Shown piece after piece: positions 3,650 to 35,496 of a DNA stretch of 64,000 nucleotides (the first letter of the stretch is position 1; each line of letters starts with the position of its first letter). The notes beneath the pieces were generated by a model. It saw only the letters and a list, made by a program, of their open reading frames with translations. It ran no database searches and was not told where the DNA came from. This DNA is from an uncultured Pseudomonadales bacterium (GTDB lineage: Bacteria > Pseudomonadota > Gammaproteobacteria > Pseudomonadales > Porticoccaceae). The stretch covers positions 1,765,386-1,829,385 of the forward strand of contig OX044363.1 of NCBI GenBank assembly GCA_943846685.1. The letters run 5' to 3'. The translations under genes were made by a program, and so were the position numbers.

Positions 3650-3669
3650 AACAATAAGCTCTATATGTT

Positions 3670-7061: not shown

Positions 7062-7092
7062 TCAACACTAGAAGCGCTCAAAAAGGCGAGAT

Positions 7093-8157: not shown

Positions 8158-8187
8158 GAGATAACCCTCAGATAAAAATTAAAATTG

Positions 8188-12723: not shown

Positions 12724-12760
12724 TCACCTCAATCCTAAACAATTATTTATGTGCAGTAAT

Positions 12761-14002
12761 TTAACGTAACATCATTCTTTTTTTCTTCGGATTTAGCCTG
12801 TTACCTTCCCTGACACTCAAAATAATTAAGAATAGAATCATCACAATCAGTGAATAAAAAACATCCGTAAAGACATTTCTGAAAAAGCTGATATATAAAA
12901 TCACTAGCAATAAAATCAGGATATCTGGACCCTTCAATGATCTTCTACCTATAAAATAAAAGCCTATCCCGGCCATCAAAAATGCTAAGAACCCTCCTAA
13001 AAAGCCATACTCTCCCATAAGCCCGCCTAACCCACTGTCGTAAATCCCAGTGCCATCAATCACCGTAGCCCAGTGGGCAATACCTACAACATTGTAAACA
13101 GGCGAACCTAGCGACATAGAAGAACCAAAGGTTCCACCACCTGCGCCAAAAGGAAAATTATCTAATGCGAGCTGAACACCCGAGCTAAACATCGCAATCC
13201 TGATATATCTGGACTGCCCATCTAAGGTAGATTCTGCAGCACCAAAAGTAGTGCCGATATCACCAAATAAAACAATAAATATGATTAATGGCACTGCCAC
13301 TAGAGGTAGCACAAGGAGGCTTCTGGCAAAGCTATACCTCATAGAACTTAGATAAAAGAAAAGGATAGGGGCAAGTAAAATAAACGATCTGGAATTTGTT
13401 AAAAGCAGCGCTGTTAGACAGATTAGAACATAAAAAAATCTGCGCTCAACAAACCAGAAATACAATGCGAACGCAACTGCCCAGGCACCACAGCGATTAG
13501 CATTAAGACTGAATCCGACCAAGCGGTCTGTTTTTACGCCAAAATTAGTATCTCTTAGCAAGCTGATAAAAAAATCAGTAAATATGATATTGAGAATTAT
13601 GCCAAGAACGTAAATAAAGAAGCCTAGCTTTATAAACGGGCTAACAATCTCTGGATCCAGGTTTCTTGCCAAATACATAACCAAAAAGAGCTTGGAGAAA
13701 AGTATCGTACTGACCAGCGAAACCCATATCCCCCTAGAATAAGCGCCTAATTCGGAGAGTGTAAAGAAAACCAAAACGACTAGACCAAACAAAACAAGGA
13801 CGGTTTTAGCTTTTATCGCCAGAATGTCTTTTAGTATAAATATGCCTGTCAAAACTGCGAAATAAGCATTACTTAACAGGATTATTTGATTGAAGTTTGT
13901 TGCACGTGCGACAAATATTGCGACCATATTCACCGCTAAAAACACCAGAATTAAGACGCCCAATCTTTGATCAGAGCGAAATAAAACAGATTTTAAAATC
14001 AC
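12761..14002 (-). CDS. wzy: Wzy-like polysaccharide polymerase / O-antigen ligase-like membrane protein
   Basis: 413 aa, AT-rich, ~11-12 TM segments, TNSRS motif and a large late periplasmic loop; located among the GTs. Confidence 0.65.
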   Translation of the reverse strand: MILKSVLFRSDQRLGVLILVFLAVNMVAIFVARATNFNQIILLSNAYFAVLTGIFILKDILAIKAKTVLVLFGLVVLVFFTLSELGAYSRGIWVSLVSTILFSKLFLVMYLARNLDPEIVSPFIKLGFFIYVLGIILNIIFTDFFISLLRDTNFGVKTDRLVGFSLNANRCGAWAVAFALYFWFVERRFFYVLICLTALLLTNSRSFILLAPILFFYLSSMRYSFARSLLVLPLVAVPLIIFIVLFGDIGTTFGAAESTLDGQSRYIRIAMFSSGVQLALDNFPFGAGGGTFGSSMSLGSPVYNVVGIAHWATVIDGTGIYDSGLGGLMGEYGFLGGFLAFLMAGIGFYFIGRRSLKGPDILILLLVILYISFFRNVFTDVFYSLIVMILFLIILSVREGNRLNPKKKRMMLR

Positions 14003-14859
14003 GCCTGAGCCTCAGACCAGGATTTTATAATCTCAGCTGTTTTAGCATCTATCTCAGAAGCAGAACCCACTAACTCTTTATATATAAAGCTCCGAAGGAA
14101 AACAGAAAAGGGCTTAAGCTTCTTTTTGATCGCTGGGAACATGATCATTTTTTGCGAAAGCTTACGGCGAACTACATTATAAGTTCGGGACAGCGACTGT
14201 GAGCGAGCAACCTTAGTCCTATTCTCAACACCCAAAGACTGGCGATCAATAGCAACATCTTTCAGCCCCAAAAAGCGAGTAACAGTATCAACACAGCGAT
14301 GCGGATCTTTTTTAAGGACTTCAAAATCAAGAACTAAAAGACGATCCCCATAAGCGGCCTTCCAGCGCTCCAAATATACATCCGTTCGACAATGATCCAG
14401 AGCACGGAATTGAACCGGAGTCTGAGAAGTAACCTTATTCTGATCCTGAAATAAAACATAATCACTCAAAGTCATATCCGATGGAATACGGCCACTCTGC
14501 TTAAAAAACCTAAAAGCGGAAACAACACGCTCAATTGGATCACGTAATATCACCACCGCTCTGGCATTAGGGAGCTTTTCTGAGGCTTCTAATGCGTTTT
14601 GGTTGTACAGATAATCAGGTGTGGCATCCATTAAGACCGAATTATCCGGCTTCTCAAAAAAACGCATATATTCATCTAAATTTGAGCCGTCATATACAAA
14701 CGGACGCTCCAATGGATACGAGTGATCTAAAAAGAAACGCGCTTCCTTAAGGCTTGAACCACAGATGTCCGGATGCTTAAGCAACCACTTAAAAAGCGAT
14801 GACGTACCCGCTTTAGGTTGCCCAACTATGAATAGATAATTTTTATTTGAAAGGTTCAT
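13999..14859 (-). CDS. PAPS-dependent sulfotransferase 3 (heparan-sulfate/NDST-like fold type)
   Basis: IVGQPKAGTSSL, LKEARFF, DATPDY, LRDPIERVVSAF motifs. Confidence 0.88.
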   Translation of the reverse strand: MNLSNKNYLFIVGQPKAGTSSLFKWLLKHPDICGSSLKEARFFLDHSYPLERPFVYDGSNLDEYMRFFEKPDNSVLMDATPDYLYNQNALEASEKLPNARAVVILRDPIERVVSAFRFFKQSGRIPSDMTLSDYVLFQDQNKVTSQTPVQFRALDHCRTDVYLERWKAAYGDRLLVLDFEVLKKDPHRCVDTVTRFLGLKDVAIDRQSLGVENRTKVARSQSLSRTYNVVRRKLSQKMIMFPAIKKKLKPFSVFLRSFIYKELVGSASEIDAKTAEIIKSWSEAQA

Positions 14860-15132
14860 TTAACATCAAGGCAACCGAATTAAACTCTCGAGTAGACTCA
14901 GTCATTTTTTGCCTTTCAGATAATTTTAAATTTAGAGATATATTGAAAGACAACAGTCAAAACAGTCGGGAAAGCCCCATATGTTCAGCGGTCAAACAAT
15001 GAATCAATTAACCTCAACAGCAAGGTTAACCTAAAATAAGCAATCTCTATGCCAACAAAGACAGCGCTTAAGACAGGCAATTCAACGGGAAAATAATAAG
15101 ATTTAGAAATGACAAATTTATTGCAGGCAGGC

Positions 15133-16305
15133 CTAAATAGCAGCGGAATGCTGAATCGATCGACGACCAAGACCTGTTAGATAAAACACAAAACCGTACA
15201 TAAGACATTCTAGAGCAAAGAAATAACCCCACTCATTGCTGGAACAGCTCCACCACTGGTTAAGGTAGCCAATCAGAACAAGACCTGAAGTCGAGCCTGA
15301 AATCAATAGTCCGGTGAGGGAATTAGAAGCAACCTGAGAACGGACTCTGGAACGCAAGAAGAAATGAATTCTATTGTGAAGGTGTTCATTATCTGGTGAA
15401 AATGGCGAACGGCCCACCAGCATTCTTCTTAATATGCTAACAAGGAAATCAACACAGGGGTAAGCAAATAATGCAGCCAGGAAGCCCAAAGAGAACACCC
15501 CAGCATTAAAGAACACCAGACCATAGATAGCCAAAGCTGCACCTAACCCATAGGTACCCGCATCACCCAGGAACAGACGACCAGTAACAACATTGAAAAA
15601 CAGGAATACCCCGCAGGCCGCCATAAAGCCCTCATCAACCACACTACCCGTCTGTATAGAGAACAGAAGGATAGAGAAGAATGCGATCCCAGAAATAAGA
15701 CCATTAGCCCCATCAGCCATATTTACGGCATTGATAAAGCCAACCAGAAATATAATTACAACAACCGCGCCGACAATGGGCAATGAGAGAACATAGTCAA
15801 GCCCGGCAAACCCTATGGATTCCGGAACCAGATCAGGCCAGACAAAGATAATGCCAGCGAAAAGGGCAAATTTTAGAGCGAGACGAATAGTCGGAGAGAG
15901 AAAATCAGCCTTTAAATCCTCTGCAAGCCCCATAGCCGCACAGCACATAATAGCGAAGATACCAAACCTGTGATTGCCATAAGTTTCAAGGTCATTGAGA
16001 AAAGAGGTACTGTTTTCAAAGTAGTTAGCCGCAAAAAACACCAGCACAGACACCATCACCGCCAAACCACCCAGCCGAGAAGATGTGCGAGCGCTAATCC
16101 CGTGCTTACTGGCCGAGTCTGTTCCCGACTGCTGAAGCGAAAACCATTGAAGAAGAAGGGCAACAATCGAACCCAACACACCAAAGCAAATGCCAGCAAT
16201 AACCACTACTATTGAAAGATGTACAAAGTCCTTTTTGGATAGAAGTAAATTAGAGATAAAAACCACCCAAATACATTTTAAGAAACAGAACCGCAGACCG
16301 CTCAA
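15133..16305 (-). CDS. second MraY/WecA-family polyprenyl-phosphate HexNAc-1-P transferase
   Basis: SRLGG, GLAEDL, NAVNMADGANGL, LFLGDAGTY, PDNEHLH motifs; start uncertain. Confidence 0.85.
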   Translation of the reverse strand: MSGLRFCFLKCIWVVFISNLLLSKKDFVHLSIVVVIAGICFGVLGSIVALLLQWFSLQQSGTDSASKHGISARTSSRLGGLAVMVSVLVFFAANYFENSTSFLNDLETYGNHRFGIFAIMCCAAMGLAEDLKADFLSPTIRLALKFALFAGIIFVWPDLVPESIGFAGLDYVLSLPIVGAVVVIIFLVGFINAVNMADGANGLISGIAFFSILLFSIQTGSVVDEGFMAACGVFLFFNVVTGRLFLGDAGTYGLGAALAIYGLVFFNAGVFSLGFLAALFAYPCVDFLVSILRRMLVGRSPFSPDNEHLHNRIHFFLRSRVRSQVASNSLTGLLISGSTSGLVLIGYLNQWWSCSSNEWGYFFALECLMYGFVFYLTGLGRRSIQHSAAI

Positions 16306-16570
16306 AGCTTTTCGCTAAGAAATAGGTTGAGCGCAATAAGCCGCGCACAATACTTGAGCCACAAGCTCAAATCAACCAGTTTCATAGCTTGAACGAAAAT
16401 AGCTCGATCGCAAAATATACTGTTATATCAGTTAGATAGCAAACAAGAGCAAAATTCAGGGGCCACTCAAGTGAATAGATTTAAAGCTCAAACTCTTATA
16501 ATTCAGGGGGTTAAAACAGGTCTGCAATCAATGATAATTCACAGGTGAATAGAGCGAAATAAAGACAAAT

Positions 16571-16600
16571 AAAAAAGCCCGGCTGTTTAGCCGAGCTTTT
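16571..16600 (-). terminator. intrinsic terminator downstream of the gmd-fusion ORF
   Basis: Minus strand AAAAGCTCGGC-TAAACA-GCCGGGCTTTTTT. Confidence 0.75.
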
Positions 16601-16742
16601 GGGTAAAAACTGGTGGGGTAATAACTGAAATGACCTGAAATACAGAATCGACACTAACAAACCACTGACAAATACTATTTTTTACACCTCTTGTACCTTT
16701 TTTAAACAGCAAGTATCCACCCTGCCGCTATTCCATTAACTA

Positions 16743-17660
<918 letters not shown>

Positions 17661-17697
17661 TTAATCCGTTTTCAAACTTCCATTTTTAACTACAGTT

Positions 17698-18027
17698 TTA
17701 TTGCTTTTGCACTTCACCCTTCAAAGACCGAATCTCCTTCTGCAGCCGCTTATACTCATCCTGCTTATACTTCAAAAACCGCTTGGCCAGTCTCGCCTTC
17801 TCGCGCAGGCCTTTACCGGTCAAGACGTACATAGAGCCGATCTTGTTATCTGATTTTTGGAAGTGTTCGATTTTTAGACAGCCAACATCGACCAGGGCTT
17901 TAACCACATAATGGCCTTTGCCGAGGCTGACACCGAGGTTTTCGGCGATCTGGCGCTGGGTTAGTTCGGGTTGTTTTTGAAGAAGCTTGAGGGTGCGGTA
18001 ATAGTATTCCTGGGTGTCCATAAGCAT
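17698..18027 (-). CDS. EPS-associated MarR-family transcriptional regulator
   Basis: PELTQRQIAENLGVSLGKGHY.VKALVDVG, Y.LT.KG, AKRFL..K..EY..L pattern. AGGAGG RBS 7 nt upstream of the ATG at 18027. Confidence 0.85.
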   Translation of the reverse strand: MLMDTQEYYYRTLKLLQKQPELTQRQIAENLGVSLGKGHYVVKALVDVGCLKIEHFQKSDNKIGSMYVLTGKGLREKARLAKRFLKYKQDEYKRLQKEIRSLKGEVQKQ

Positions 18028-18042
18028 AACTTTTCCTCCTGA

Positions 18043-18054
18043 CAGGCTACCGCA
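18043..18054 (-). promoter_or_regulatory. ops-like (RfaH loading) element
   Basis: TGCGGTAGCCTG vs consensus GGCGGTAGnnTG, immediately upstream of the AGGAGG RBS; rfaH is encoded in the same region. Confidence 0.55.
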
Positions 18055-18209
18055 GGAGCCGGTCATGAGCTCCTGCTTTTATATGACTTGGGTCTGTGTT
18101 TTGACCCGATCGTACAGTCCGTGAACGATGTTTTAAAAGTAGACCAAACTGGTGCAGTTGCCAGTTTATTTGCCGATTTAATTAACTGTTGTTATGCCGT
18201 TGTTATAGA

Positions 18210-19169
18210 TCAGTATTCATTGGGGGTTTTATTGCTTTTTGGCTGCCGGCCATAGTGCATCACTAATACTGCAAGTATTGATAGCATGGCGCCCAAGAGT
18301 ACGGCTAATACACAGATAAGTGCTCTTTTCGGGGTCGACTTTTCCTCTGGCACCATGGCTGGGTTTACGGTAACAAAGGCATATTCTGGGCTGGCTTCGG
18401 CGAGCATTTTGTTTTTTATCTGTTCTTCAATCACTTGATAAAACACTTCTTTCATGCCGGCGATGGCGGTTTTCTCTATCTGCGCTTCTAAATATTCAAT
18501 ATTGCTGTTGGTCTGTCCCAGTTTTCTGGTGCGCATATAGTCGTTAATGGTAGTGATATAGAGGTCTACCCATTGTTTGGCGAGTATTGGGGAATAATGT
18601 TCGATGGATATAGAGATCATGCCTGATGTTTTGTCGGTGGTGACGACTAGGCGCTCGGAAAACTCTTTATACAGTTCCCAGCTGGTGGGGTCGATGGTTT
18701 TACCTGCTGGTGGATTTCTTACCCAGTGTTTTTGCTGGCTGTCGTAGAGGCTGCTGTCATAGCTGAGTTGGTTGATTTCTCTGTCCCACCCGTCGGCGGC
18801 AAAGATTTCTGCAGCGAGGTTGTTGGTTTTTATAAATTGCTCAATAAAGCTCCAAGATTGCATTATTTCCATGGCTGCTTGGGCTTCTCCTCCCTCGTCT
18901 GAAGGGGCTTTGATTCCGGCTAGGGAGGCGAGCCCACCAAGCTGTGAGCTCATGGCGCCTAGCATGGAGGTGCTGCCACTTTGGGCTGGGGAGACTACGG
19001 CTGTGGCTTGGTATTGATTGGGGATTAGCAGTACGACAATCACTGCTATTACGGCGAATAGGCTGGTGACGGTGAGGATGTTTTTTTTGCCTGACCAGAG
19101 TACGGATGCGAGTTCTCGTAGGTCTATTTCATCGTCGGCTGGTTGGTTTAGGTGCATTTCATTTTGCAT
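18210..19169 (-). CDS. wzz: Wzz/FepE chain-length determinant (copy 1)
   Basis: DEIDLREL..LW, two terminal TM helices, PEEKSTPKRALI. ATG at 19169 has an AAGGA RBS; the ORF-track extension to 19247 is repeat-derived. Confidence 0.9.
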   Translation of the reverse strand: MQNEMHLNQPADDEIDLRELASVLWSGKKNILTVTSLFAVIAVIVVLLIPNQYQATAVVSPAQSGSTSMLGAMSSQLGGLASLAGIKAPSDEGGEAQAAMEIMQSWSFIEQFIKTNNLAAEIFAADGWDREINQLSYDSSLYDSQQKHWVRNPPAGKTIDPTSWELYKEFSERLVVTTDKTSGMISISIEHYSPILAKQWVDLYITTINDYMRTRKLGQTNSNIEYLEAQIEKTAIAGMKEVFYQVIEEQIKNKMLAEASPEYAFVTVNPAMVPEEKSTPKRALICVLAVLLGAMLSILAVLVMHYGRQPKSNKTPNEY

Positions 19170-19200
19170 GGTTGTATTCCTTTGTTCTTGATCCTTGGTA

Positions 19201-19380
19201 TAGACCCCAGCCTTCGCTGGGGTGACGTTCCGTTGTTGGGGTGACAACTCTCATGTTATTTCGACTAGCGGGAGAAATCTTATGGAGGTCCCTCGTCGCT
19301 TCGCTCTGTCGGGATGACAGTGTTAATAGAGTGCTCTGTCGGGATGACAGTATTGACAGGGTGCTCTGCTGGGATGACAG
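19201..19380. repeat. cluster of REP-like palindromes and a 30-bp tandem repeat
   Basis: Hairpin ACCCCAGC-CTTC-GCTGGGGT (19204-19223); GTTATTTCGACTAGCGGGAGAAATCT (19255-19280); 36-bp element 19285-19320; GCTCTG(TC/CT)GGGATGACAG x3 with a 30-bp period. Confidence 0.85.
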
Positions 19381-20392
19381 TGGGTTGTAAGCATTGTGCT
19401 TCCAGTGTTTTGGCTATGCCTGTCTCGAAGGTTTCCTGTGGTTTCCAGCCTATCTCTCTGGCTATTTTTTCTGCGTTTATGGCGTATCTCCAGTCGTGGC
19501 CGGGTCGGTCGGCGACGAAGCTAATCAGTTTTCGGTGGGGGGCGGCAGCTGGGTTTTGTTGGTCCATCAGGTCGCAGATGGTGCGGCAGATATCGATATT
19601 GGCCCATTCGTTGATACCGCCAATATTGTAGGTTTCACCGAGTGTGCCCTTGCGCACTACGGCATCAATGCCGGAGCAGTGATCTTCGACATACAGCCAG
19701 TCGCGAATATTGCTGCCGTCGCCATAGATGGGTATCTGCTGTTGCTGTTGGCAGGCTCTTATGACGGTGGGGATAAACTTTTCGGCGTGCTGACAGGGGC
19801 CGTAGTTATTCGAGCAGTTGCTGGTGGTGACGGGTAAGCCATAGGTGTGGTGCCAGGCTCTTACCAGATGGTCTGAGCTGGCTTTTGAGGCGGAGTATGG
19901 CGAGTTGGGTGCGTAGGCGGTGGTTTCTGTAAATGCCGGGTCTGTGAGCTTTAGGGTGCCAAAGACTTCATCGGTGGAGATATGGTGAAAACGGCATTGC
20001 TTGTTATCGAGACCGTTGGTTTGTTGCCAGTAGCTTCTTGCTGCTTCGAGTAGTGCAAAGGTGCCGATTACATTGGTTTGTATAAATTCACTGGGGCCGC
20101 TGATGGATCGGTCGACATGGCTTTCAGCGGCGAAGTGCACGAGGGTATCTATTTGATGTTGCTCGAGCAGTTTGGCGATTAATGTTTGGTTGCAGATATC
20201 GCCTTGCACAAAATGGTGGCGGGTTTTATCTGCCAGTCCGTCTAAGTTGTCCATTGAGCCGGCGTAAGTAAGCTTGTCGAGATTAACAATGTTTACGTCG
20301 GGGTATTTGCCGAGCATATAGCGGACGTAGTTGCTGCCTATAAAGCCTGCGCCGCCGGTGACGAGGATATTGCGTGGTTGATACTCAGTCAT
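19280..20392 (-). CDS. rmlB: dTDP-glucose 4,6-dehydratase (copy 2) with repeat-derived C-terminus
   Basis: [36 protein letters not shown]. Ends VIPAEH..VIPTEH..VIPTERSDEGPP, encoded by the repeats. Confidence 0.93.
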   Translation of the reverse strand: MTEYQPRNILVTGGAGFIGSNYVRYMLGKYPDVNIVNLDKLTYAGSMDNLDGLADKTRHHFVQGDICNQTLIAKLLEQHQIDTLVHFAAESHVDRSISGPSEFIQTNVIGTFALLEAARSYWQQTNGLDNKQCRFHHISTDEVFGTLKLTDPAFTETTAYAPNSPYSASKASSDHLVRAWHHTYGLPVTTSNCSNNYGPCQHAEKFIPTVIRACQQQQQIPIYGDGSNIRDWLYVEDHCSGIDAVVRKGTLGETYNIGGINEWANIDICRTICDLMDQQNPAAAPHRKLISFVADRPGHDWRYAINAEKIAREIGWKPQETFETGIAKTLEAQCLQPTVIPAEHPVNTVIPTEHSINTVIPTERSDEGPP

Positions 20393-21278
20393 GGTCTTGC
20401 AGGGCTCCTATGGTTTCATTGAGGCTGTCTTGCCATGGCTTGATAGTTAGGCCAAAGGTGTTTTCCAGTTTGCTGGTGTCAAGCTCTGAGTTGGCGGGCC
20501 GTTGGGCATGGGTGGGATATTCGCTGCTGGGTATTGGCTGCAGGTCGCTGACTAGCAGATGATTGCTCCAGTAGTTTTTATCGAGACTGCGGGCCTGCGC
20601 AAAGATTGCCTGTGCAAAGCTGTACCAGCTGAGTGCTTGGGGCTGGGCGAGGTTGTAGATGCCCCAGTGGTTTTCGATTTTTGGCAGTATCTGCAGTATC
20701 AGGCGGACAATTTCCCTGGCGGAGGTTGGCTTGCCTATCTGGTCGTCGACAACGTTCATTTTTTCGCGCATGGAGCCAACATGCAGCATGGTTTTGACAA
20801 AGTTGTGGCCGTACTCAGAGAATACCCAGCTGGTGCGAAAGATCAGGTGTTTGCTGTGTATCTGGGTAATGGCTTTTTCTCCGGCGAGTTTACTGGCGCC
20901 GTATATTCCCAGTGGGGCTGTTGGGTCATCTTCGAGCCAGGGGCCCTGTTTACTGCCGTCAAAGACATAGTCGGTGGAGAAGTGGACTAGGGGGATATCC
21001 AGTCGTTTGCAGACTTCGGCGAGGTTGGCTGGGCCGGTTTCATTGACCAGATAGGCGTTTTCTTTTTCAGATTCAGCGAGGTCTACCTGTGTGTAGGCGC
21101 TGGTGTTGATGACAAAGTCTGGGCGCTCGCGGGCTATCACTGTTTGGGCTTCGTCGACACAGGTGACGTCTAGGTCGCCGCGGCTATAGGCTGAGAATTG
21201 AATGTCTCTGTTGGCTTTTAGTTCGCTGACAAAGGCTTTGCCGAGTTGGCCGGCGGCTCCGGTGATCAGTAGCTTCAT
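20385..21278 (-). CDS. rmlD: dTDP-4-dehydrorhamnose reductase (copy 2)
   Basis: GAAGQLG, AYTQVDLAE, STDYVFDG, YGASK. Confidence 0.95.
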   Translation of the reverse strand: MKLLITGAAGQLGKAFVSELKANRDIQFSAYSRGDLDVTCVDEAQTVIARERPDFVINTSAYTQVDLAESEKENAYLVNETGPANLAEVCKRLDIPLVHFSTDYVFDGSKQGPWLEDDPTAPLGIYGASKLAGEKAITQIHSKHLIFRTSWVFSEYGHNFVKTMLHVGSMREKMNVVDDQIGKPTSAREIVRLILQILPKIENHWGIYNLAQPQALSWYSFAQAIFAQARSLDKNYWSNHLLVSDLQPIPSSEYPTHAQRPANSELDTSKLENTFGLTIKPWQDSLNETIGALQDHD

Positions 21279-21847
21279 AACTTTGACCCCGGATATAAGT
21301 CTTTAACTTGCTCTTTAAACAGTTCTGCAAAGCTCTGCCCTGCTCTATCTTTATCGGAAAGTATCGGGTTGGTTATCGGCCAGTCGATATTTAATTGCGG
21401 GTCATTCCACAGCAAGCAGCCTTCGTCGCTGGGGTCGTAGTATTCGGTGCATTTGTATTCAAAGTCGGCGCTGTCGGAGGTGACCACAAAGCCATGGGCG
21501 GTGCCCGGGGGCAACCAGAATTGACGGTGATTTTCTTCGGATAGCCAGACGCCGTGCCATTTCCCAAAGCTGGGTGAGTCTTTGCGCAGGTCGACGACTA
21601 CATCAAATACTTCGCCGCGCACAACTCTGACTAATTTGCCCTGGGGTTTGGTTTTCTGAAAGTGCAGCCCACGCAGTACGCCTCTGGATGAGCGCGAGTG
21701 GTTGTCTTGAACAAATGGTAGGTCGTTATGAATTTGTTTCTGGTAGCGCTGGGCTTGATAGGTTTCAAGAAAGAAGCCTCTCGCGTCGCCATAGACTTTG
21801 GGTTCAATTACTACGGCGCCTTGTACGGCGGTTTCAATTATATTCAT
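21275..21847 (-). CDS. rmlC: dTDP-4-dehydrorhamnose 3,5-epimerase (copy 2)
   Basis: [33 protein letters not shown]. Confidence 0.96.
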
Positions 21848-22740
21848 TGGTAGCCCTCGACAACTTTTTGCAGGTATTGGCCGTAGCCGGTTTTGTGCAG
21901 TGCGGCAGCTTGTTTCTGCAGACGTTGCTCACAGATCCAGCCCCGCTGATAGGCTATTTCTTCGAGACAGGCGACTTTTAGTCCCTGGCGGTGCTCGACG
22001 GTTTGGACAAATTGACTGGCTTCAAGCAGTGAGTCATGGGTGCCGGTGTCGAGCCAGGCAAAGCCGCGCCCGAGTTGACTGACATGCAGGTCACCACGCT
22101 CTAGGTAGACGTTGTTGATATCGGTTATTTCGAGTTCGCCGCGGGCTGAGGGTTTGATACTTTTGGCGATTTCAATAACGTCATTGTCGTAAAAGTAGAG
22201 GCCGGTGATGGCGTATCGGGATTTTGGATTTTGCGGTTTTTCTTCAATGCTGATGGCTTTGCCTTGTGCATCAAATTCAACCACACCAAAACGTTCGGGG
22301 TCGTTGACATGGTAGGCGTAGATGGTTGCGCCCTGATCTCGTTGTGTGGCATTTTCGAGCTTGTCGGTGAAGTGTTGGCCGTAAAAGATATTGTCGCCAA
22401 GTACTAGGGCTACGTTATCGTCGCCAATAAACTCTTCGCCGATAATAAAGGCTTGGGCTAGTCCGTCTGGGGATGGCTGTTCGGCATAGCTGATGCTGAC
22501 GCCAAATTGACTGCCGTCGCCAAGCATACGCTTGAAGCCGGGCAGGTCGACGGGGGTTGAGATGATTAATACTTCGCGGATCCCGGCCAGCATTAATACT
22601 GACAGGGGGTAGTAGATCATCGGCTTGTCGTAGACTGGCAACAGCTGCTTTGAGGCTGCCAGTGTGATCGGATGCAGACGTGTGCCTGAACCGCCGGCGA
22701 GGATAATCCCTTTGTAGTTCTTCCTTTCAGTTTCTTCCAT
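21844..22740 (-). CDS. rmlA: glucose-1-phosphate thymidylyltransferase (copy 2)
   Basis: [39 protein letters not shown]. Confidence 0.97.
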
Positions 22741-22834
22741 AAACTGTAAACAATTCCTTTGTTTAATTTTCGCTTAACTTGCGTTTTTTACGGCTGTTTT
22801 TTAGTCAGCCTTCCTATGCTGCCTGTGGTGGGAT

Positions 22835-23020
22835 GAGATCCCTCGTCGCTTCGCTCTGTCGGGATGACAGGTTAAATCCTCTGCCGCAATGACAGGGTAA
22901 ATCCTCTGCCGCAATGACAGCTTAAATCCTCTGCCGCAATAACATACTGAACCCTCTGCCGAAACGGCAGCCCAACCGCTCTTAATTCCGAGCGAAGCCG
23001 AGGGGTCTTGCAAGACCCCT
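22835..23020. repeat. REP-like cluster: 36-bp element, four 25-bp tandem units, inverted REP remnant, 20-bp perfect palindrome
   Basis: 22835-22870 matches 19285-19320 at 35/36. Units of the form xxTAAATCCTCTGCCGCAATGACAG span 22871-22970 (3rd and 4th degenerate). AGGGGTCTTGCAAGACCCCT at 23001-23020. Confidence 0.85.
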
Positions 23021-23045
23021 CATTGTTCTAACTTATAATTAGATA

Positions 23046-24572
23046 CTAGTAAAAATTGTAGTTAACCGACGCGGCTACGCGCAATTTGTCTTCCTGACGA
23101 CCAAATTGATCAATTATTTTGTCGGTGTATCGCCCTTCTATCTCTATTTCGCCCCAAACAAACGGACGCAGCCATTTTGCTGATACTGTGTTCAGTGCTG
23201 TTTTCTTTGAGGTGATTGAGTGACGTGAGCTAGGGTCTTCAGTCAGGCTGTCATAATTAATGTCGCCAAAGCTGTAGCGCGCTTCAATTTTATCGCCATT
23301 ACTGAGATGGCCTATAGCACCAAGACTGGTCACTTTTGAGTCATTGTCCCAGGTTGCTCCAATCACTCGACCTTCATAGCGGTAGCCAGAACGGTAAATT
23401 CTGTGATTGTAGAGACTGTTATAGGGGCTAGGGGCGGACTTTAGGCTGGTGCCATCATGTTCAATAAATACCGCGCCCTCAAACCACTGACTAGTCAAAT
23501 CGAACTGCATACCCATCTGACTGGCTCGGCGAGAAGGCAGTCCACCCGCTTCATCTTCACCGATGGTCTGGCCGTAAAAGGATGCATCTAGCCAGGGTAA
23601 ATCCCAGCGGAAATCTATGCCGCCTAACTGATTGCCGGGCTCATCGAGTTTACAACTTTCTTCAACACAGTTATCCGAAAGACCGGTCATCAGTCTTAAA
23701 AAATTGCTCAAGCTTTCAGGTCTGCCCTCGCCTCCCCACTGCGCAGTGCGTCGCAGGTTAATTTCCAAGGACTGAGTGGGACGAAATCCAACCGTCATGC
23801 CAACCAGCTTGGCATCTTTGATATGTCGCTCGTCATCCAGCTTGGTGACAAACATATTGGTAGTCCAGGGGCCCAGCCACTTTATTACTGGTAGTTCTGA
23901 GGCTTCGGAGTAATTGCGCTGCAGGCTTATACCGGTGGTTGGGCGGGCATTATTGGTCATGATTAAGCTGCTGTTCCAAGAGGGTCCCCACCAGCGCTCA
24001 ACACTGCCAATAAGACCGACCCAGTTGCCCATCACTACACCGAAGTAGCTGTTGTCGTAGTGGGTTTCTTCACCATCCCAGGGGTTGTTGGTTTTAGTGA
24101 CTTCAAGGTTGTAGGTGAAGTTTTCTGTAATGTCGCTGCGGCGCAGGGTTATCTCGGCTTCTTCACGAGCTTTGTCTCCGAAGTGCCGAAACAGCTGTGA
24201 TTGATTGGCAACGGTCAATTTGACTGACTGACTGGGCTTGTGGATGCGCGCGGCTTTTCTTCCAGCGGTCAGAACTCGTGCATAACTATTTTTTAGTTTA
24301 TCTGGAACCGCTTTACTGTCTGTGGCTTCAAGATTGTTAATGATACTCAACCACATTAATGGTCGAGTGTTGATAGGAACTTTAATAATGCCGGCGCTGG
24401 AGAGTCTCTCTATATCAACTCGCAGGCCTGAGTCTCTGGTATCAATCCATGGCTCTGCGGCGGCAAGGTAGGAGCCGTTCATCAACAGAACAAGAAACAG
24501 AGTGCAACTTCTAAGCCAGCTATTTGTTTTTTTATTATTAGTGATCAACACATTACGTTGTATCTTTAACAT
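23046..24572 (-). CDS. wzi: capsule assembly Wzi-family outer-membrane protein
   Basis: Signal peptide, EPWI..LRVDIERL..AGII, RWWGPSW.SSLIMTNNARP, NQLGG, C-terminal aromatic F-Y. Confidence 0.85.
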   Translation of the reverse strand: MLKIQRNVLITNNKKTNSWLRSCTLFLVLLMNGSYLAAAEPWIDTRDSGLRVDIERLSSAGIIKVPINTRPLMWLSIINNLEATDSKAVPDKLKNSYARVLTAGRKAARIHKPSQSVKLTVANQSQLFRHFGDKAREEAEITLRRSDITENFTYNLEVTKTNNPWDGEETHYDNSYFGVVMGNWVGLIGSVERWWGPSWNSSLIMTNNARPTTGISLQRNYSEASELPVIKWLGPWTTNMFVTKLDDERHIKDAKLVGMTVGFRPTQSLEINLRRTAQWGGEGRPESLSNFLRLMTGLSDNCVEESCKLDEPGNQLGGIDFRWDLPWLDASFYGQTIGEDEAGGLPSRRASQMGMQFDLTSQWFEGAVFIEHDGTSLKSAPSPYNSLYNHRIYRSGYRYEGRVIGATWDNDSKVTSLGAIGHLSNGDKIEARYSFGDINYDSLTEDPSSRHSITSKKTALNTVSAKWLRPFVWGEIEIEGRYTDKIIDQFGRQEDKLRVAASVNYNFY

Positions 24573-24597
24573 TTCTAATACCTTTTAATTTTTTAAT

Positions 24598-27135
24598 CTA
24601 AAAGCTGTTGATTGCTGCTGCACCCAGTGCCAGCTGGTAAACAATTGCACTGGCTTCTCCCCAGAGCGTTAGCTTGCGGCGGCGGTCAACATCCAGTGGA
24701 ACTATAACTGTATCTCCAGGTTCAATATTGTTGATTCTGTGTTTAAACCAGCCAGAGCGACCTGGCAAGGACACTGATCCATCAGCTTTTACTACATAGA
24801 TACGCTTGTTGTCGGCGCGGCGGGTCACACCGCCACTAAGATCAATATAATCATCAATCTTTAAATTTCTATTAAACAAATGTGATGATGGGTGCTGAAT
24901 TTCGCCCACCACTGATATCTCTTGGCGGTATTCGGGGACAACCAGCAGATCACCATCTTTTAAAATAATATCGTCTAAACTGGCATCGAGAATACCAGAA
25001 AGGTCTATAACCAGTCGCCCTAATGCTTCACTGGCCTCTAGCTCTGAAAGTATTTTGGTTGAATCATCGAGACTGGACGACTTGCCTTCATTGGTTTTTT
25101 CCAAGCTACTTGCAGCTATGTCTGCGCGTAAACGCTGGCGCAACTCTTGTAATTGTTTGGCTTCCTGTTCACGGAGTACTTCGCGAGTAAATACGGCTGC
25201 ATCTTGGTGCGCGTGCTCGGTTAAGCCTCCAGCGCGCTTGATAACTTCGCTTAATTTCTCGCCACGCTTAAATCGATAGTGGCCGGGAAATCTGACTTCT
25301 CCCATCAGGCTAATGCTCAGGGATTCTCTAAATTCGGGTATGGTGCGCACCGACACAACATCATAGGGGTGCAGTACTGGGTCTTTGCTCGGATCGCCTA
25401 TGGCTTCAGCCAGAGTGATGGCGAAATGGTCTGCTTGTGCCTTTTCTATATTGGTAAAATCATGTCGAGATAGCTCGACGACCTGCGTGTACGCTTCTTC
25501 ATTGAGCCCACCTGCTGTTGCAATTAACTGGGTCAACGTCATGTCTTTTGTCAGTGGGTATTCTCCGGGGGAGCGAACGGTACCGGTGATTGTGACAACC
25601 CGTGCCATTTCTCCAGAGCGCGATTGCAGTCTTAATAACTTCACCAGTTCTTCAAGCTTGGCGGCGCGGTTTGCCTCATTGGAGAAGACAATAAGTTTGT
25701 CGCGGGGCAGGAAGTTAATATTGGCGCTGCTGTCGGGATCGGCGAGCACTGCACGCAGGTCGACAAATAACGGTTCTATTCTTCCCACTGGCGGCAGTTC
25801 GCGGTGGATTAGGGCAAAGTCTAGGTCTGCATTGGGTTTTAGGCTTGCAAGACTTTTAACCAGGTCTGAGATTTGCAGCCCTTCACGCCATAAAAAATCA
25901 CCGGGGTAGTAAACATGGCCGGACAGTGTGACAACCAATTCCTGCCGCTCTACTGCGCTGTCGACCACTAAAAGATCACCACTTTTGATCGCGGTGTTCT
26001 GGCCTTTCGAGGTACTTAAATCTATATCAACTACACCCATAAATCCGGAATTGCCAACGCGGTGAATTCGCGCGCTTTTCGAAAATGCTTTGGGTGTTAA
26101 ACCTCCGGCCAGCTTTATAAGCTCATGGGCCGTGACGCTGCCTTTAAGCTCATAGATAGCGGGTCTGCGCACCTGGCCATTGACTGAGGCAGTTTTGTTG
26201 ACGGTGGGAATATAAATAGTGTCGCCGGACTGCAACTGTGCATCATCGCGAGTATCGCCATGTAACAGCAAGTCATAGAGATCTAGGTTGGCGACTACTT
26301 TACCGGCACGTTTTAGCTGCAGGTTGCGCAGCGAGGCAATATCACTGAGCCCCCCAGATAGGAACAGGGCGTTGGTAATGGTGGAAAGTGCGGAGATGGT
26401 ATAGGTGCCGGGCTTGTAGGCTTCACCTAACATAAACACCTGCATGGAGCGCAATTCACCGAGGCTGATACTGGCTTCGATACCAATAATTTCTTCTTTA
26501 ATACGGCGCTGTAATAGCTGTTTGGCGTCACTAAAGGTCATGCCGGCAAGGCTGACTGGGCCAAGCTGCGGGAAGTCTATGGAACCGTCACGATTAATTT
26601 CCAGTTTATGGGATTCATTGACCTTGCCATAAAAAAGCACCTGCACCGTATCTCCGGGCCCAAGAATATAGCTGGGGGACACAGGAATTCGTGATGCGGG
26701 TTCAAAACTGGTTGGCTCTCCAGAGAAAAGATCGTAGCCATAGGCTGTTAATGCTTTCGCTTTAGCGATTTCACTGAGTTCTTCTGCTGAGGGCAACGGC
26801 GATGGCATAGTTTTATCTGCATCTCTCTTTGCATCTTCGCGAGGCAAGACCAGTGGTTCATCATCGACGGAACTTTCCGAAAGCTCAAATAGATCAAGGC
26901 TGCTGCAAAGCGTGTCTATATCATAACCGGCGGATTTGGCGAGGCGCTTGTTCGACTCACTCATCCCACTACACAGCTGACGCGCTTCTTTTATACTTTC
27001 CTGAGCTGAGCTGAGAGATAAATCCTGAGCAGACAGCATTGCGCTTAGTAACATTAAGGCTAAGCCAATAGAAAAGGCGTAAAAAGTGGGGGTCTTAAAC
27101 ATAAGTAGTCTCATAATGTATTTTTTTGCATCCAT
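24598..27135 (-). CDS. large polysaccharide export protein with tandem SLBB domains (Wza-like, OtnA/WbfF/KpsD type)
   Basis: YILGPGD, G.V..PG.Y repeats, AGGL motifs x4, C-terminal PGDTVIVP and amphipathic helix. Confidence 0.85.
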   Translation of the reverse strand: MDAKKYIMRLLMFKTPTFYAFSIGLALMLLSAMLSAQDLSLSSAQESIKEARQLCSGMSESNKRLAKSAGYDIDTLCSSLDLFELSESSVDDEPLVLPREDAKRDADKTMPSPLPSAEELSEIAKAKALTAYGYDLFSGEPTSFEPASRIPVSPSYILGPGDTVQVLFYGKVNESHKLEINRDGSIDFPQLGPVSLAGMTFSDAKQLLQRRIKEEIIGIEASISLGELRSMQVFMLGEAYKPGTYTISALSTITNALFLSGGLSDIASLRNLQLKRAGKVVANLDLYDLLLHGDTRDDAQLQSGDTIYIPTVNKTASVNGQVRRPAIYELKGSVTAHELIKLAGGLTPKAFSKSARIHRVGNSGFMGVVDIDLSTSKGQNTAIKSGDLLVVDSAVERQELVVTLSGHVYYPGDFLWREGLQISDLVKSLASLKPNADLDFALIHRELPPVGRIEPLFVDLRAVLADPDSSANINFLPRDKLIVFSNEANRAAKLEELVKLLRLQSRSGEMARVVTITGTVRSPGEYPLTKDMTLTQLIATAGGLNEEAYTQVVELSRHDFTNIEKAQADHFAITLAEAIGDPSKDPVLHPYDVVSVRTIPEFRESLSISLMGEVRFPGHYRFKRGEKLSEVIKRAGGLTEHAHQDAAVFTREVLREQEAKQLQELRQRLRADIAASSLEKTNEGKSSSLDDSTKILSELEASEALGRLVIDLSGILDASLDDIILKDGDLLVVPEYRQEISVVGEIQHPSSHLFNRNLKIDDYIDLSGGVTRRADNKRIYVVKADGSVSLPGRSGWFKHRINNIEPGDTVIVPLDVDRRRKLTLWGEASAIVYQLALGAAAINSF

Positions 27136-27182
27136 TCAATTGTGAGCATTGCCGATAATATCTTACTTTTACAGGAAACACC

Positions 27183-27710
27183 CTAATCGGGGTTCTTATC
27201 ACTTGCCGTCAGGCTTTTAAACGGTAGCGATGCTTTTACCTGTTGGTTGAGTAAATTAACTAAAACAACGGCGCGCTGGTTGCCGTCTATTTCGGTAAAG
27301 ACTGCGTTGAGGCCTCTAAAGGGGCCGTCGATAATCTGTAGCTGATCACCAATCTTGGGTAGATCAGAAACCACCTCACCACTGGTTGCGTCAGTGCGCT
27401 CTTGCAGTTGCTCAATAAGGGTATCCGGCACCATAACCGGTGAGCCGGCACTGGTGACAAAATGGCTGACTCCTCGGGTAGAGCGAACGGTGGTGGCTGA
27501 CACTTTGCTTTGGTTAAAGTTTACAAAAAGGTAGCTGGGAAAGAGCGCTTCCTCTTTAATCACTCTGGTGCCTCGAGAGACTTTTTCGATACGAACCATT
27601 GGGCAAAAAGAGTCTACGCCCTGGCGTCCCAAATTCTCTACAGCCCGGGCTTCCTGCCTTGATTTCGTCTGAAGTAAAAACCAACTCCCTTCTTTCATAC
27701 CTGCATCCAT
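27183..27710 (-). CDS. rfaH: transcription antitermination factor RfaH
   Basis: NGN domain WFLLQTKSRQE..LFPSYLF..VRSTRGVSHFV and KOW GDQLQIIDGPFRGL. Confidence 0.92.
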   Translation of the reverse strand: MDAGMKEGSWFLLQTKSRQEARAVENLGRQGVDSFCPMVRIEKVSRGTRVIKEEALFPSYLFVNFNQSKVSATTVRSTRGVSHFVTSAGSPVMVPDTLIEQLQERTDATSGEVVSDLPKIGDQLQIIDGPFRGLNAVFTEIDGNQRAVVLVNLLNQQVKASLPFKSLTASDKNPD

Positions 27711-27743
27711 ATCCTTAAACTTTTTGACCTGTTTGCCTATACT

Positions 27744-29111
27744 TTAATCCAGTAGAGCAAGCAGCTCACTCTGACACTGAGCCAACAACTCACTATCACC
27801 GCGAGTTTCCAGATTCAGCCGCACTACCGGCTCGGTATTACTCATACGCAGATTAAAGCGCCACTCGGGGAATTCCATGGATATTCCGTCGGTGTCATCA
27901 ATAACCAATGCACTTGATTCGTAATGTTCGCGCACGCGCTGAATAGCCGCTGCGGGATCGGCAATTTTGCGATTGAGCTCACCCGGCGACGGATAGGCTA
28001 AAACCATATCATTGACCAGCTCAGAGAGTGGCTTGCCTGTGGTTGAAACCAGTTCTACAACCAATAACCATGGAATCATACCGCTGTCGCAGTAAAAGAA
28101 GTCACGGAAATAATGGTGGGCGCTCATCTCGCCGCCATAAATGGCGTCTTCTGCTCGCATACGCTCTTTAATAAAGGCGTGTCCAGTTTTTGACTGAATC
28201 GCTTGGCCACCGTTCTTTTCGGCGACTTCAATGGTGTTCCAGGTAAGCCGAGGGTCGTGAACAACTTTGGCTCCGGGGTTCTTCAACAAGAAGGCTTCTG
28301 CCAATAGGCCGACAATATAGTAGCCTTCAATAAAGTTGCCCTTTTCATCAACCAGGAAACAGCGATCAAAATCACCATCCCAGGCGATACCCATATCTGC
28401 TCCGTGCTCGAGAACCGCATCAATGGTTGGTGCACGATTCTCGTGGAGAATAGGATTGGGGATACCATTGGGGAATGTGCCATCTGGCTCATTGTTGATC
28501 TTGATTAATTCAATCGGCAGGTTTAACTCTGCAAAGCGCTTTTCAATGGCATCTACCACATGACCAGCTGCGCCGTTACCGGCATTCATAACCAGCTTGA
28601 GCGGCTTGACTTTGGAGACATCTAAATACCCAAACAGGTGGTCGAGATAGGCTTCCAGAACTGACATTTTCTTATAGCCGCCACGCTGTTCTTGAATGGC
28701 AGGAGAGAATTGATTTTGCTCTGCGAGTCGCTTGATATCCAGCAGGCCTGTATCGGCACTAATGGGTCGCGATCCCTCACGAATTGGTTTCATTCCATTG
28801 TGGTCAATCGGGTTGTGACTGGCTGTTACTTCGATACCACCGTCTGCATTGAGGTGCGAGGTGGCGAAATAGACTTCTTCGGTACCTACCATGCCAATAT
28901 CAATAACGTCTGATCCAGCATCACGGATACCTTCACTCAGGGCTGTTTTAAGAGCTTCGCTGGTTAAGCGAACATCACCGCCGAGAACAATGCTTTTTGG
29001 CTGAAGAAATTCAGCATAGGCACGACCAATACGGTAGGCTATTTCTTCGTTTAATTCAGTGCCCAGTTGCCCACGGATATCGTAGGCCTTAAAACAGGTT
29101 AACTCAGTCAT
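27744..29111 (-). CDS. manB: phosphomannomutase / phosphoglucomutase
   Basis: [39 protein letters not shown]. Confidence 0.95.
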
Positions 29112-29282
29112 TCATCTCTCTCTTAGATAGGCCTCTTTTGAGGCTTTTTCAGTCTGGCCAATAGCAACCAGATCCATTGACGTTTAATTTAAAATTACCC
29201 TGCTATATAAGCTTGTGTAAACCTTTATGAGAGACTCATGAAGATTTTTTCTACATTAGTATAGCTGAGATAATTCAGTTAG

Positions 29283-31052
29283 CTAGAAGGGCCAAACTAT
29301 TGGCACCAGAAATACCACCATTACTCCCACTAGTATGCTGAGTAGTAACCCGACCCGAAAGTAATCAGAAAACTGATAGCCACCAGGTCCCTGAACCATC
29401 AGGTTAGTCTGGTAGCCAAAGGGGGTCAAAAAGCTTGCCGATGCGGCAAACATGATGGTCATTACAAATGGCAGCAGACTGACATCAAGCTCGGTACTGA
29501 GCGCCTGTGCCAGCGGAAACATTAAAACTGCAGCAGCATTGTTGGTAATCAGTTCTGTGGCAGCGACGGTTACCAGATATAAAAGCAGTAAGTTTATAAA
29601 GGGGTTGCCATCGGCAAGGGACATAATTCCCTGGGCCGCTATATCAGCTAATCCGGTTTTTTGTAGGGCAAAGCCGAGAGACAGAGATGCGCCAATCGCG
29701 AGTATCACGCGCATATCAATACTGCGTTGAGCAAACTCCAGAGAAATACAGCGCGTGACTGCCAGTCCTGCAACCAGTAACAGTGAGGCTGAGACCAGTG
29801 ACATTAGCCCCAGCAAAACAACAACGATAAATAGTCCCAACAAGCCCAGCGCCACTGGGGCTCTTGAGACATCGGGAATGGTCGCGTCATCAATTCGACT
29901 GAGCAACAGGAAATCACGGTTATAGCGATGGCGACGAACAAAGCCGCGAGCGGCTTCCAGCAACAGGGTGTCACCGGGCTTAATAACAATGCTGCCTACC
30001 TTTTCATTGATTCGCTTGCCGTTGCGCGAGATAGATAGGATAACGCCGCCAAACAATGTTCTAAAGGTCGATTCCTTAACGGTCTTGCCAATCATATTGG
30101 AGACCGGTGAAACTACAGCTTCTATAAGGGCTCTACTGCTGTAGGGAACATCCAGCTCTAACACTTCACTTTCGGCTGGTGTCAGACCTCGAAATTGACG
30201 CAGTTCGCTTACGGCTTCTGGCTGACCAACAAAGACTAAAATATCATTACCACTAAGAATTTCCTCTGGACCCACAGCAGGAATGACATGGCCTTTGGAT
30301 TGAATCTCAGATAAAAAGCTGTATTGCAGATGGCGTAGGCCAGCATCGGCAATCGACATACCGGCCAATACACCGCCCTCTTCTACTCGCATAGATACTG
30401 CATATTGACGGGTATCAATAAGGTCTTCGCCGAGGCTCTTGCGCTCAGGCAGTAAGTGATGACCGATTAAAACGAAGTAGCCGATTCCTACCAGTATAAG
30501 GGGAAGACCAACTGCCGCCGGGCTGAACAGGTTAAGGCTCTCTGCCTCTGGAGACCCTTGCAGCATACCTACAATGATAATGTTGGTACTGGTGCCGATC
30601 AGTGTGCAAGTGCCACCCAAAATCGATGCGTAACTGAGCGGTATTAATAACTTGGATACTGATACATTATGGCGCCTTGCCCAATCCTGTATCAGCGGAA
30701 TAAATATAGCCACTACCGGAGTGTTGCTAATCACCGAGCTACTGACTGCGACTGGTGCCATAATCAGTGGAATAGCGCCTTTGACGGATTTGTTCTTGCC
30801 CAACCAGCGCATAATCCACCAGTGTAATGCGCCACTCTCTTTGAGGGCGGAGGAGACAATATAAAAGCTGGCAATAATAAAAATCGCCGGGTTAGAAAAG
30901 CCCTCAAAAGCTTCACTGGGAGTAAGTACACCAAAAACCAACAAAGCTGTCATGCACAGCGCTAAAGCAATATCTACCGCTATTCGGCCGCTGACTGCGA
31001 CAACGAGAAAGCTGATCAAAACAACTAATGTAATTACTGCATCGAGGCTCAT
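29283..31052 (-). CDS. SLC13/DASS-family permease with two TrkA-C domains (possible sulfate/anion transporter)
   Basis: SNTPVVA, LGGTCTLIGTSTN, TrkA-C-like central repeats, TELITNNAAA, FLTPFGYQTNLMV.GPGGY. Confidence 0.88.
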   Translation of the reverse strand: MSLDAVITLVVLISFLVVAVSGRIAVDIALALCMTALLVFGVLTPSEAFEGFSNPAIFIIASFYIVSSALKESGALHWWIMRWLGKNKSVKGAIPLIMAPVAVSSSVISNTPVVAIFIPLIQDWARRHNVSVSKLLIPLSYASILGGTCTLIGTSTNIIIVGMLQGSPEAESLNLFSPAAVGLPLILVGIGYFVLIGHHLLPERKSLGEDLIDTRQYAVSMRVEEGGVLAGMSIADAGLRHLQYSFLSEIQSKGHVIPAVGPEEILSGNDILVFVGQPEAVSELRQFRGLTPAESEVLELDVPYSSRALIEAVVSPVSNMIGKTVKESTFRTLFGGVILSISRNGKRINEKVGSIVIKPGDTLLLEAARGFVRRHRYNRDFLLLSRIDDATIPDVSRAPVALGLLGLFIVVVLLGLMSLVSASLLLVAGLAVTRCISLEFAQRSIDMRVILAIGASLSLGFALQKTGLADIAAQGIMSLADGNPFINLLLLYLVTVAATELITNNAAAVLMFPLAQALSTELDVSLLPFVMTIMFAASASFLTPFGYQTNLMVQGPGGYQFSDYFRVGLLLSILVGVMVVFLVPIVWPF

Positions 31053-35434: not shown

Positions 35435-35440
35435 ATATAG

Positions 35441-35470: not shown

Positions 35471-35496
35471 CGTTTCTGAGCAATAAGCGATTGAAT

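Follow-up and report, generated by a model that had tools for sequence, protein, structure and literature searches.

The stretch of DNA analysed here (the window) comprises 64,000 nucleotides of an uncultured Porticoccaceae bacterium, contig OX044363.1, and all coordinates below are positions in the whole window. Between 1.5 and 34 kb all genes lie on the minus strand. Among them the capsule assembly gene wzi is followed by rmlA, rmlC, rmlD and rmlB, the chain-length determinant gene wzz and a gene encoding a MarR-type regulator. Gene identities were taken from profile matches, those of the rml genes being assessed against the NCBIfam equivalog cut-offs. The rmlACDB genes are the second of two rml sets in the window, and in both sets all four enzymes of the dTDP-L-rhamnose pathway score above the cut-offs of TIGR01207, TIGR01181, TIGR01221 and TIGR01214. 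An earlier note on this DNA described a 36-bp direct repeat around the second set, called it similar to repetitive extragenic palindromic (REP) elements, and suggested that it had moved the four genes. The origin of this repeat pair and its relation to the rml genes are considered below.

A pattern search yields exactly two matches of the 36-mer in the window, both read on the plus strand in the same orientation: copy A upstream of rmlA and copy B at the end of rmlB. The direct repeat is therefore as the earlier note described it, with 35 of 36 positions identical and the G/A position as the sole difference; no matches are expected, as none occurred in 100 shuffles. The similarity reaches 43 nt at 91%. 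Read on the minus strand, both copies have the sequence CTGTCATCCCGACAGAGCGAAGCGACGAGGGA(T/C)CTC. The claim that the repeats enclose exactly the four rml genes holds in so far as these four lie between the copies, but the distal copy is situated inside the last 13 codons of rmlB and not outside it. A short tandem array ends in each 36-mer; the units before it consist of the first 17 nt of the element, which form a CTGTC/GACAG mini-hairpin, and a spacer. In 18 contigs of the same species, array A has from 4 to 8 units, the element included. The edges of copy A are also marked by contigs with unrelated flanks, which stop at 22836 and at 22869–22875. The flanks of the two copies have nothing in common beyond the family consensus, and neither copy has terminal inverted repeats or duplicated flanks (target-site duplication) around it, as an element derived from an insertion sequence (IS) or a miniature inverted-repeat transposable element would have.

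The same 36-mer is found between unrelated housekeeping genes in the SAR92 isolate HTCC2207 and in several metagenome-assembled genomes (MAGs) labelled Porticoccaceae-like or "Pseudomonadales", with 33–36 of 36 positions identical. Since copies at unrelated loci are as similar as this, the identity of 35/36 within the window is a property of the family. The density is up to four copies in 2.5 kb, and two 8-kb loci of HTCC2207 contain four and three copies. Contig depth in four DNA runs rises sharply at 19285/6, drops sharply after 19320, and over the 36-mer in between is 55–200 times the level of the flanking sequence; the edges of the 36-mer are also where many contigs stop whose flanks are unrelated. 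The depth edges and the contig ends show a short element with defined ends, and the depth and the locus counts show many dispersed, mostly extragenic copies, both as in REP elements. At other loci the copies are intergenic in 15 cases out of 18 and co-oriented with the upstream gene in 13 out of 17; hence two sense copies in a co-directional operon are the expected arrangement. A collection scan was also made with the 17-mer unit, where the matches listed are mostly due to chance and those in Porticoccaceae-like sequences alone are informative.

The common form of the wider family consists of GTCA, a stem of 4–5 nt, a loop of 10–18 nt, the complementary stem and TCT. The loose frame GTC[AG]-YYYY-N6-24-RRRR-TC[TC] occurs at 50 sites in 316 kb of loci of this kind, and in 39 of the 50 one 4-nt block is the full complement of the other, the chance expectation being about 1/16. 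Five versions of the stem are seen: TCCC/GGGA, TCTC/GAGA, CCCC/GGGG, TCCT/AGGA and TTTC/GAAA. Judging by these sequences, the elements form a superfamily in which the stem covaries and several subfamilies exist, and the 36-mer is probably one of these subfamilies, denoted S1, of a dispersed REP-like superfamily of the Porticoccaceae (SAR92). Arrays adjoin the 5' (GTCA) side in 12 of 35 elements and the 3' side in two, both of the latter being the array of an inverted neighbour. Rfam matches only two tRNAs and not the element, and a literature search retrieved no paper with the repeat sequence and none on SAR92 together with REP.

Compared with the REPs and the bacterial interspersed mosaic elements (BIMEs) of Enterobacteria and Pseudomonas, which are mobilised by REP-associated tyrosine transposases (RAYTs), the superfamily is alike in the length of about 25–36 nt, in having tens to hundreds of copies, mostly intergenic and often right after genes or terminators, in the coexistence of several subfamilies whose heads and tails are conserved and whose stems covary, in occasional inverted pairs (here in L140 and L015, the L-numbers denoting the contigs or lineages compared) and in high conservation across related genera. 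It differs in the 5' head, which is (CT)GTCA in all subfamilies here and GTAG or GTGG in REPs, in the S1 stem of only 4–5 bp with an 18-nt loop, and in its arrays, which are one-sided direct repeats of the 5' half, whereas BIMEs are alternating whole REPs. The earlier label of a dispersed REP-like element is reasonable for such a mostly intergenic repeat, with two defining features of REPs missing or unverified.

Another subfamily, S3 (GTCACCCC...GGGGTCT), is represented between rmlB and wzz and behaves in the same manner as the 36-mer: its 22-nt 5'-half units accumulate on the 5' side, with one unit in the window, three in L130 (10080–10175) and many in L139 (1640–1910, an array spanning a scaffold gap). 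The motif GTTAAAT in the array spacers resembles GTTRRRY of integron attC sites. This candidate was rejected, as the 40 window open reading frames (ORFs) scanned contain no integrase and no paired core sites were seen by eye.

The order wzi–rmlACDB–wzz–marR is syntenic in at least six other lineages. The relatives compared are L130, L131 and L132/L133, in which Wzi is 70–79% identical, and L138, L139 and L140, reached through RmlB. Both copies are intact in L130. In L138 copy A is a decayed remnant and copy B is intact, following an intact rmlB stop codon. In L140 copy A is intact and copy B is absent, rmlB overlapping wzz. Copy B is intact in L139, where the site of copy A falls outside the contig, and absent in L131, where a scaffold gap takes the place of copy A. 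In L132 both copies are decayed. In the more distant L134 and L137, wzi adjoins wzz, with neither rml genes nor the repeat between them; the earlier note had proposed a comparison with relatives for empty sites retaining one repeat, and these two retain none. In L135 only a 5' remnant of rmlA is left, hence the deletion in this lineage broke inside the gene.

The alignments with relatives change sharply along the locus. In comparison with L130, the PGM, rfaH, wza and wzi genes are 71–79% identical (0.44–0.63 at third codon positions), and the genes from rmlA to rmlB are 94–98% identical (0.87–0.96 at third codon positions). The step lies inside the 3' end of wzi, and from there the high identity runs on through copy A, the cassette and copy B up to the contig end at 19174. 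In L155, an independent Joint Genome Institute (JGI) contig, wzi is 73% identical, and a single alignment at 95% identity extends over 22919–18462, past copy B and into wzz. In L152 the identity is 95.6% from rmlB to the end of wzz. Since the tracts run through copy B into wzz, the exchanged unit is larger than the bracketed segment, and copy B is never its border.

The composition of the region gives a similar picture. Over 19–23 kb the plus strand has a GC skew of +0.08 to +0.23 and an AT skew of −0.15 to −0.29. On the coding strand, rmlA, rmlC, rmlD, rmlB and wzz have a GC skew at third codon positions (GC3) of −0.38 to −0.61 and the corresponding AT3 skew of +0.20 to +0.46, a signature seen in no other gene of the window and present also in L132 (9751–14236). 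These values bear out the remark of the earlier note that the second set differs in composition, but wzz, outside the bracket, shares the signature, and copy B is therefore situated inside the compositional block. The C3/A3-rich codon usage could be caused by a foreign origin of the whole block, by selection for expression or by a former opposite orientation. RmlB of this set (RmlB2) is 72–73% identical to RmlB of Mariprofundus (Zetaproteobacteria) and 70–72% identical to that of other SAR92 genomes.

Table 1. Features of the wzi–wzz segment (window coordinates)
Feature	Position	Strand	Comment
wzi, capsule assembly protein	23046..24572	-	PF14052; last gene of the more diverged upstream block
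5' breakpoint of the L130 high-identity tract	23208..23242	.	Inside the 3' end of wzi; identity step
Perfect 20-nt palindrome AGGGGTCTTGCAAGACCCCT, then inverted partial element core CGGCTTCGCTCGG	22988..23020	-	Just past the wzi stop; folding z = −4.8
Array A	22871..22978	-	Four 25-nt units (element 5' half + 8-nt spacer); adjoins the 5' side of copy A
REP-like element, subfamily S1, copy A	22835..22870	-	CTGTCATCCCGACAGAGCGAAGCGACGAGGGATCTC; wzi–rmlA spacer, sense orientation
Conserved leader motif GGCAGCATAGGAAGGCTG	22806..22823	-	Between copy A and the rmlA start
rmlA2, glucose-1-phosphate thymidylyltransferase	21844..22740	-	TIGR01207, 517 bits (cut-off 361)
rmlC2, dTDP-4-dehydrorhamnose 3,5-epimerase	21275..21847	-	TIGR01221, 254 bits (cut-off 156)
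rmlD2, dTDP-4-dehydrorhamnose reductase	20385..21278	-	TIGR01214, 314 bits (cut-off 224)
rmlB2, dTDP-glucose 4,6-dehydratase, 370 aa	19280..20392	-	TIGR01181, 471 bits (cut-off 365), residues 8–331
Array B	19321..19380	-	Two 30-nt units (element 5' half + 13-nt spacer); in frame, each approximately TVIPTEHSIN
REP-like element, subfamily S1, copy B	19285..19320	-	CTGTCATCCCGACAGAGCGAAGCGACGAGGGACCTC; within the 3' end of the rmlB2 ORF
Single 19-nt S3 5'-half unit	19227..19245	-	Precedes the S3 hairpin
Subfamily S3 hairpin GTCACCCCAGCGAAGGCTGGGGTCT	19202..19226	-	Strong hairpin, folding z = −3.7
wzz, chain-length determinant	18210..19169	-	Profile match; rml-like C3/A3-rich codons, same low-divergence block

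We consider it quite likely that the two 36-mers are separate S1 copies residing in old spacers of a conserved operon, and that they did not move the cassette. Both would sit in the sense orientation in spacers of a long co-directional polysaccharide operon, downstream of wzi and of rmlB, and both sites would have been occupied before several of the lineages split, after which the copies were presumably kept, decayed or lost independently. The rmlACDB genes would be an old syntenic part of the locus, forming with wzz and marR one block with its own codon signature. This block is probably swapped between lineages by ordinary homologous recombination, with ends in wzi, in the rmlA leader or past wzz. 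Two local effects are directly visible in the sequence: each element has grown, on its 5' side, an array of its own 5' half that varies in copy number, and at copy B the loss of 13 nt with the rmlB stop codon has added a tail varying in steps of 10 aa. The arrays probably arise by replication slippage at the mini-hairpin. Once transcribed, the hairpins may affect how stable the mRNA is, or how it is translated, between one operon segment and the next.

The proposal of the earlier note was that recombination between REP copies, for instance of a circle at a resident REP, had put rmlACDB between wzi and wzz and could delete it, the pair thus marking a mobile unit. REP-mediated rearrangements are known in enterobacteria, and two copies identical at 35/36 positions, in the same orientation and 3.5 kb apart around exactly four rml genes, would suit this model; but the near-identity belongs to the repeat family and not to the pair in the window, and the flanks are alike only in the family consensus. 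The distant L134 and L137, where wzz directly follows wzi, might be taken for the state prior to insertion, but their empty spacers contain no REP. Similarly, both sites are already occupied in lineages as distant as L132, but the cassette persists where one copy is missing or decayed. Loop-out would leave the deletion junction GATTTAAC + 36-mer + CATAAGATTTC and produce a circle with CTATTAACA + 36-mer + ATCCCACCACAGG. The predicted deletion junction has 0 matches in the JGI contigs, where rmlB precedes copy B in each of the five contigs that include this copy and the flank downstream of it. Of the contigs read, 22 of 22 for identical Wzi and 10 of 10 for identical RmlB show the complete arrangement, both copies included, and no deletion allele is present among about 37 contigs of the window lineage and its close relatives. 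The apparent joint 19324→22835 was rejected as a trace of loop-out, since its sides measure just 23–30 nt and 10 additional letters are present, and is read as adjacent REP copies from elsewhere.

Moreover, the codon signature and the low-divergence block take in wzz and marR, past copy B, and the exchange tracts, one of which begins inside wzi, cross copy B unbroken. Thus the empty sites without a repeat, the lack of a deletion allele among these contigs and the borders beyond copy B are not those of a repeat-bounded mobile or excisable cassette. Two circumstances that the earlier note itself counted against its proposal are also observed: the element is abundant, and the cassette occurs in an unchanged context in relatives that lack one of the repeats or have a decayed one, as copy B is absent from L140 and L131 and copy A is decayed in L138 and L132. 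Hence insertion or loop-out through the repeats is largely refuted, and we regard it as very improbable. The associated idea of mosaicism of the glycan locus without an IS fares better, as the locus is indeed mosaic and has none.

Several points weigh against the two copies being simple residents of old spacers. Rare excision events escape contig data. The copy number is a summed contig depth from mixed communities, possibly including co-occurring relatives, and not a count in a complete genome of the species. The folding energy of the 36-mer alone is −6.4 to −7.0 kcal/mol (z about +0.6), no better than that of shuffled sequences; hence the S1 hairpin rests on the covariation among subfamilies. 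No Y1 transposase (RAYT, PF01797) was found among the 40 window ORFs scanned with profiles, which left out smaller ORFs, or near the REP clusters of L065, L109 and L113, the genomes not having been searched. In L155 the switch from unrelated to related sequence occurs about 20–35 nt from copy A, and in L132 and L140 the identity step lies somewhere within an unalignable spacer, so the repeat-rich spacer may contribute to the 5' breakpoints. Finally, L130 and L155 are metagenome contigs, for which chimeric assembly is conceivable. Against the last concern, their right-hand parts are only 94–98% identical to the window species, and the pattern is repeated in two independent assemblies.

It might also be that the repeats and hairpin arrays are not neutral selfish repeats and are kept mainly as functional RNA elements, which could stabilise 3' ends, act as partial terminators or modulate translation, and in this way set how strongly wza/wzi, rml and wzz are expressed relative to one another. 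In E. coli, REPs are known to influence both mRNA decay and translation. The sense orientation downstream of genes in 13 of 17 cases and the continued occupation of the two sites across lineages agree with such a role, but copies decay or vanish in sister lineages where the operon is intact (copy A of L138, L132, L140, L131). The mini-hairpin units show T-A, T.G and C-G at one stem position; however, the folding energies of the arrays are no better than those of shuffles, the number of array units varies freely among near-identical strains, and Rfam has no match for the element. The whole region is covered by contigs in runs labelled metatranscriptomic, but these runs provide contigs only and are silent on 3' ends and abundance. 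On balance we find retention for an RNA function unlikely.

Overall, the finding is mostly ordinary. A striking direct repeat around a cassette can be simply two members of an abundant family, and chance flanking can be separated from mobility by family-wide identity, the occupancy in relatives, the extent of the block and of the exchange tracts, and the search for deletion alleles. Bacteria of the SAR92 type are abundant in coastal algal blooms, and the repeat family breaks metagenome assemblies at these sites. Exchange of the rml–wzz block between lineages is seen to run through homologous recombination. Three minor leads, apparently not described before, are the repeat family, its one-sided arrays and the tail of RmlB that the repeat encodes. 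A more far-reaching possibility, rather doubtful when all its parts are taken jointly, is that this is an undescribed REP-like superfamily extending itself in one direction, where the element seeds a fast-evolving one-sided array of its 5' half, by hairpin slippage or by nick-and-copy with a Y1-type enzyme; the loss of a stop codon then creates in-frame tails of variable length, as in RmlB, and the wzi–rmlA spacer serves as a preferred end point of exchange of the rml–wzz block between species.

The tail of RmlB2 is encoded by the repeat. Similarity to the orthologues of 338/340 aa stops near codon 337 (..LEAQCLQP) in the alignment, and the last 33 codons of rmlB2 are array B and copy B. Comparison with L138, L154 and L155 reveals a 13-nt deletion in the window lineage; the missing letters (GCCGAAGCCTAGT or a variant) comprise the final rmlB codons and the stop. 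With the stop removed, the rmlB2 ORF continues, without a change of frame, across array B and copy B as far as the TAA at 19280–19282. Database variants of this RmlB have 360 or 370 aa, the difference being one 30-nt unit. The profile match ends at residue 331, but a truncation of rmlB2 by about 25 codons was rejected, as the orthologues have 338–340 aa and the clade is naturally short.

At the 3' end of rmlC there is another in-frame variable repeat, the 12-nt GTTAAAGAGCAA (VKEQ) at 21299–21319, by which RmlC has 190, 194 or 198 aa in near-identical strains. At the same place in rmlC, L138 has a far longer array of 24–27-nt units (4870–5115). Short-read contigs break at 21263–21321, at the rmlC repeat. 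Short or missing calls in L001, L006 and L009 suggested decay of rmlC and rmlD, but were traced to the 12-nt variable repeat, to gaps in the scaffolds and to what are probably indel errors of the assemblies. As in the variable-number tandem repeats at gene ends of the contingency-locus type, the 30-nt units of rmlB and the 12-nt units of rmlC vary among strains, and, being multiples of three, change the tail length without a frameshift. Unlike those systems, the units in rmlB come from a dispersed intergenic repeat captured by the loss of a stop codon, and nothing here points to on/off switching or to a function of the tail.

The leader motif between copy A and rmlA is kept in L130, L132, L138 and L155 while its surroundings diverge. 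Compared as GGCAGCATAGG with the enterobacterial ops/JUMPstart element GGCGGTAG, it gives no match. A NusG/RfaH paralogue is encoded at 27183–27710, and the motif is a possible recruitment site for it.

The two rml sets have different histories. As the earlier note stated, the gene order is A-C-D-B in the second set and B-sulfotransferase-A-C-D in the first: rmlB1 (7093–8157), the sulfotransferase gene (5997–7061, PF13469), rmlA1, rmlC1 and rmlD1. RmlB1 and RmlB2 are 52% identical. The homologues of RmlB2 grade from 98% to about 70% identity, the named ones including Porticoccaceae MAGs, MOLA455 and SAR92 clade bacterium H231, and those of RmlB1 fall fast to a plateau of gammaproteobacterial sequences at 76–78%. 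The rmlB1 gene is situated in a low-GC region at 2.3–14.9 kb that varies among otherwise 99.6–100% identical strains. From the homologue series and the strain variability it follows that the second set is the conserved resident one, and the first travels with the strain-specific, sulfotransferase-rich region.

The locus can accordingly be mapped in modules, with the conserved export and rml block followed by a strain-specific sulfated-glycan region that contains the other rml set. It resembles modular O-antigen and capsule loci, such as the enterobacterial O-antigen clusters with rml at the conserved end, in the conserved 5' module (an rfaH-like gene, wza, wzi, rmlACDB and wzz), the low-GC strain-specific 3' region, the sharp steps of divergence between modules, and the higher similarity between lineages of the rml genes than of the genes next to them. 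The differences are the presence of a second, 52% identical rml set within the variable region and the strong C3/A3 codon signature of the conserved rml block.

The boundaries of the variable region are visible in contigs that are 99.6–100% identical over 14871–30393; these carry other genes (wza, wzc and others) in place of 2260–14870 and rejoin the window at about 2259. Besides the first rml set, 2260–14870 contains sulfotransferase genes at 5997–7061, 9320–10312 and 13999–14859, and genes for a Wzy-like protein, a MATE-type flippase and glycosyltransferases. This gene content suggests that the region makes a sulfated, rhamnose-containing polysaccharide.

The ORF at 16743–17657 (minus strand, 304 aa) is a chimera, in which residues 1–87 resemble the N-terminus of GDP-mannose 4,6-dehydratase and residues from about 70 to 250 resemble the C-terminal half of a different NAD-dependent epimerase. 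It is kept in contigs of the same species, and L004 has another sequence and two more S1 repeats instead. The ORF has the look of a scar left by recombination at the border of the variable region.

Two further observations concern tRNA genes. Next to tRNA-Asn (240–315), a Glycos_transf_4 fragment of 200 aa (414–1016, plus strand) has a GC3 skew of −0.53, unlike its neighbours, and may be the remnant of a WecA-type gene. At 34974–35939, tRNA-Leu(CAG) is directly followed by a 186-nt tandem duplication (35045–35439, 2.1 copies, 88%) and then by an array of 19-nt repeats (35808–35931).

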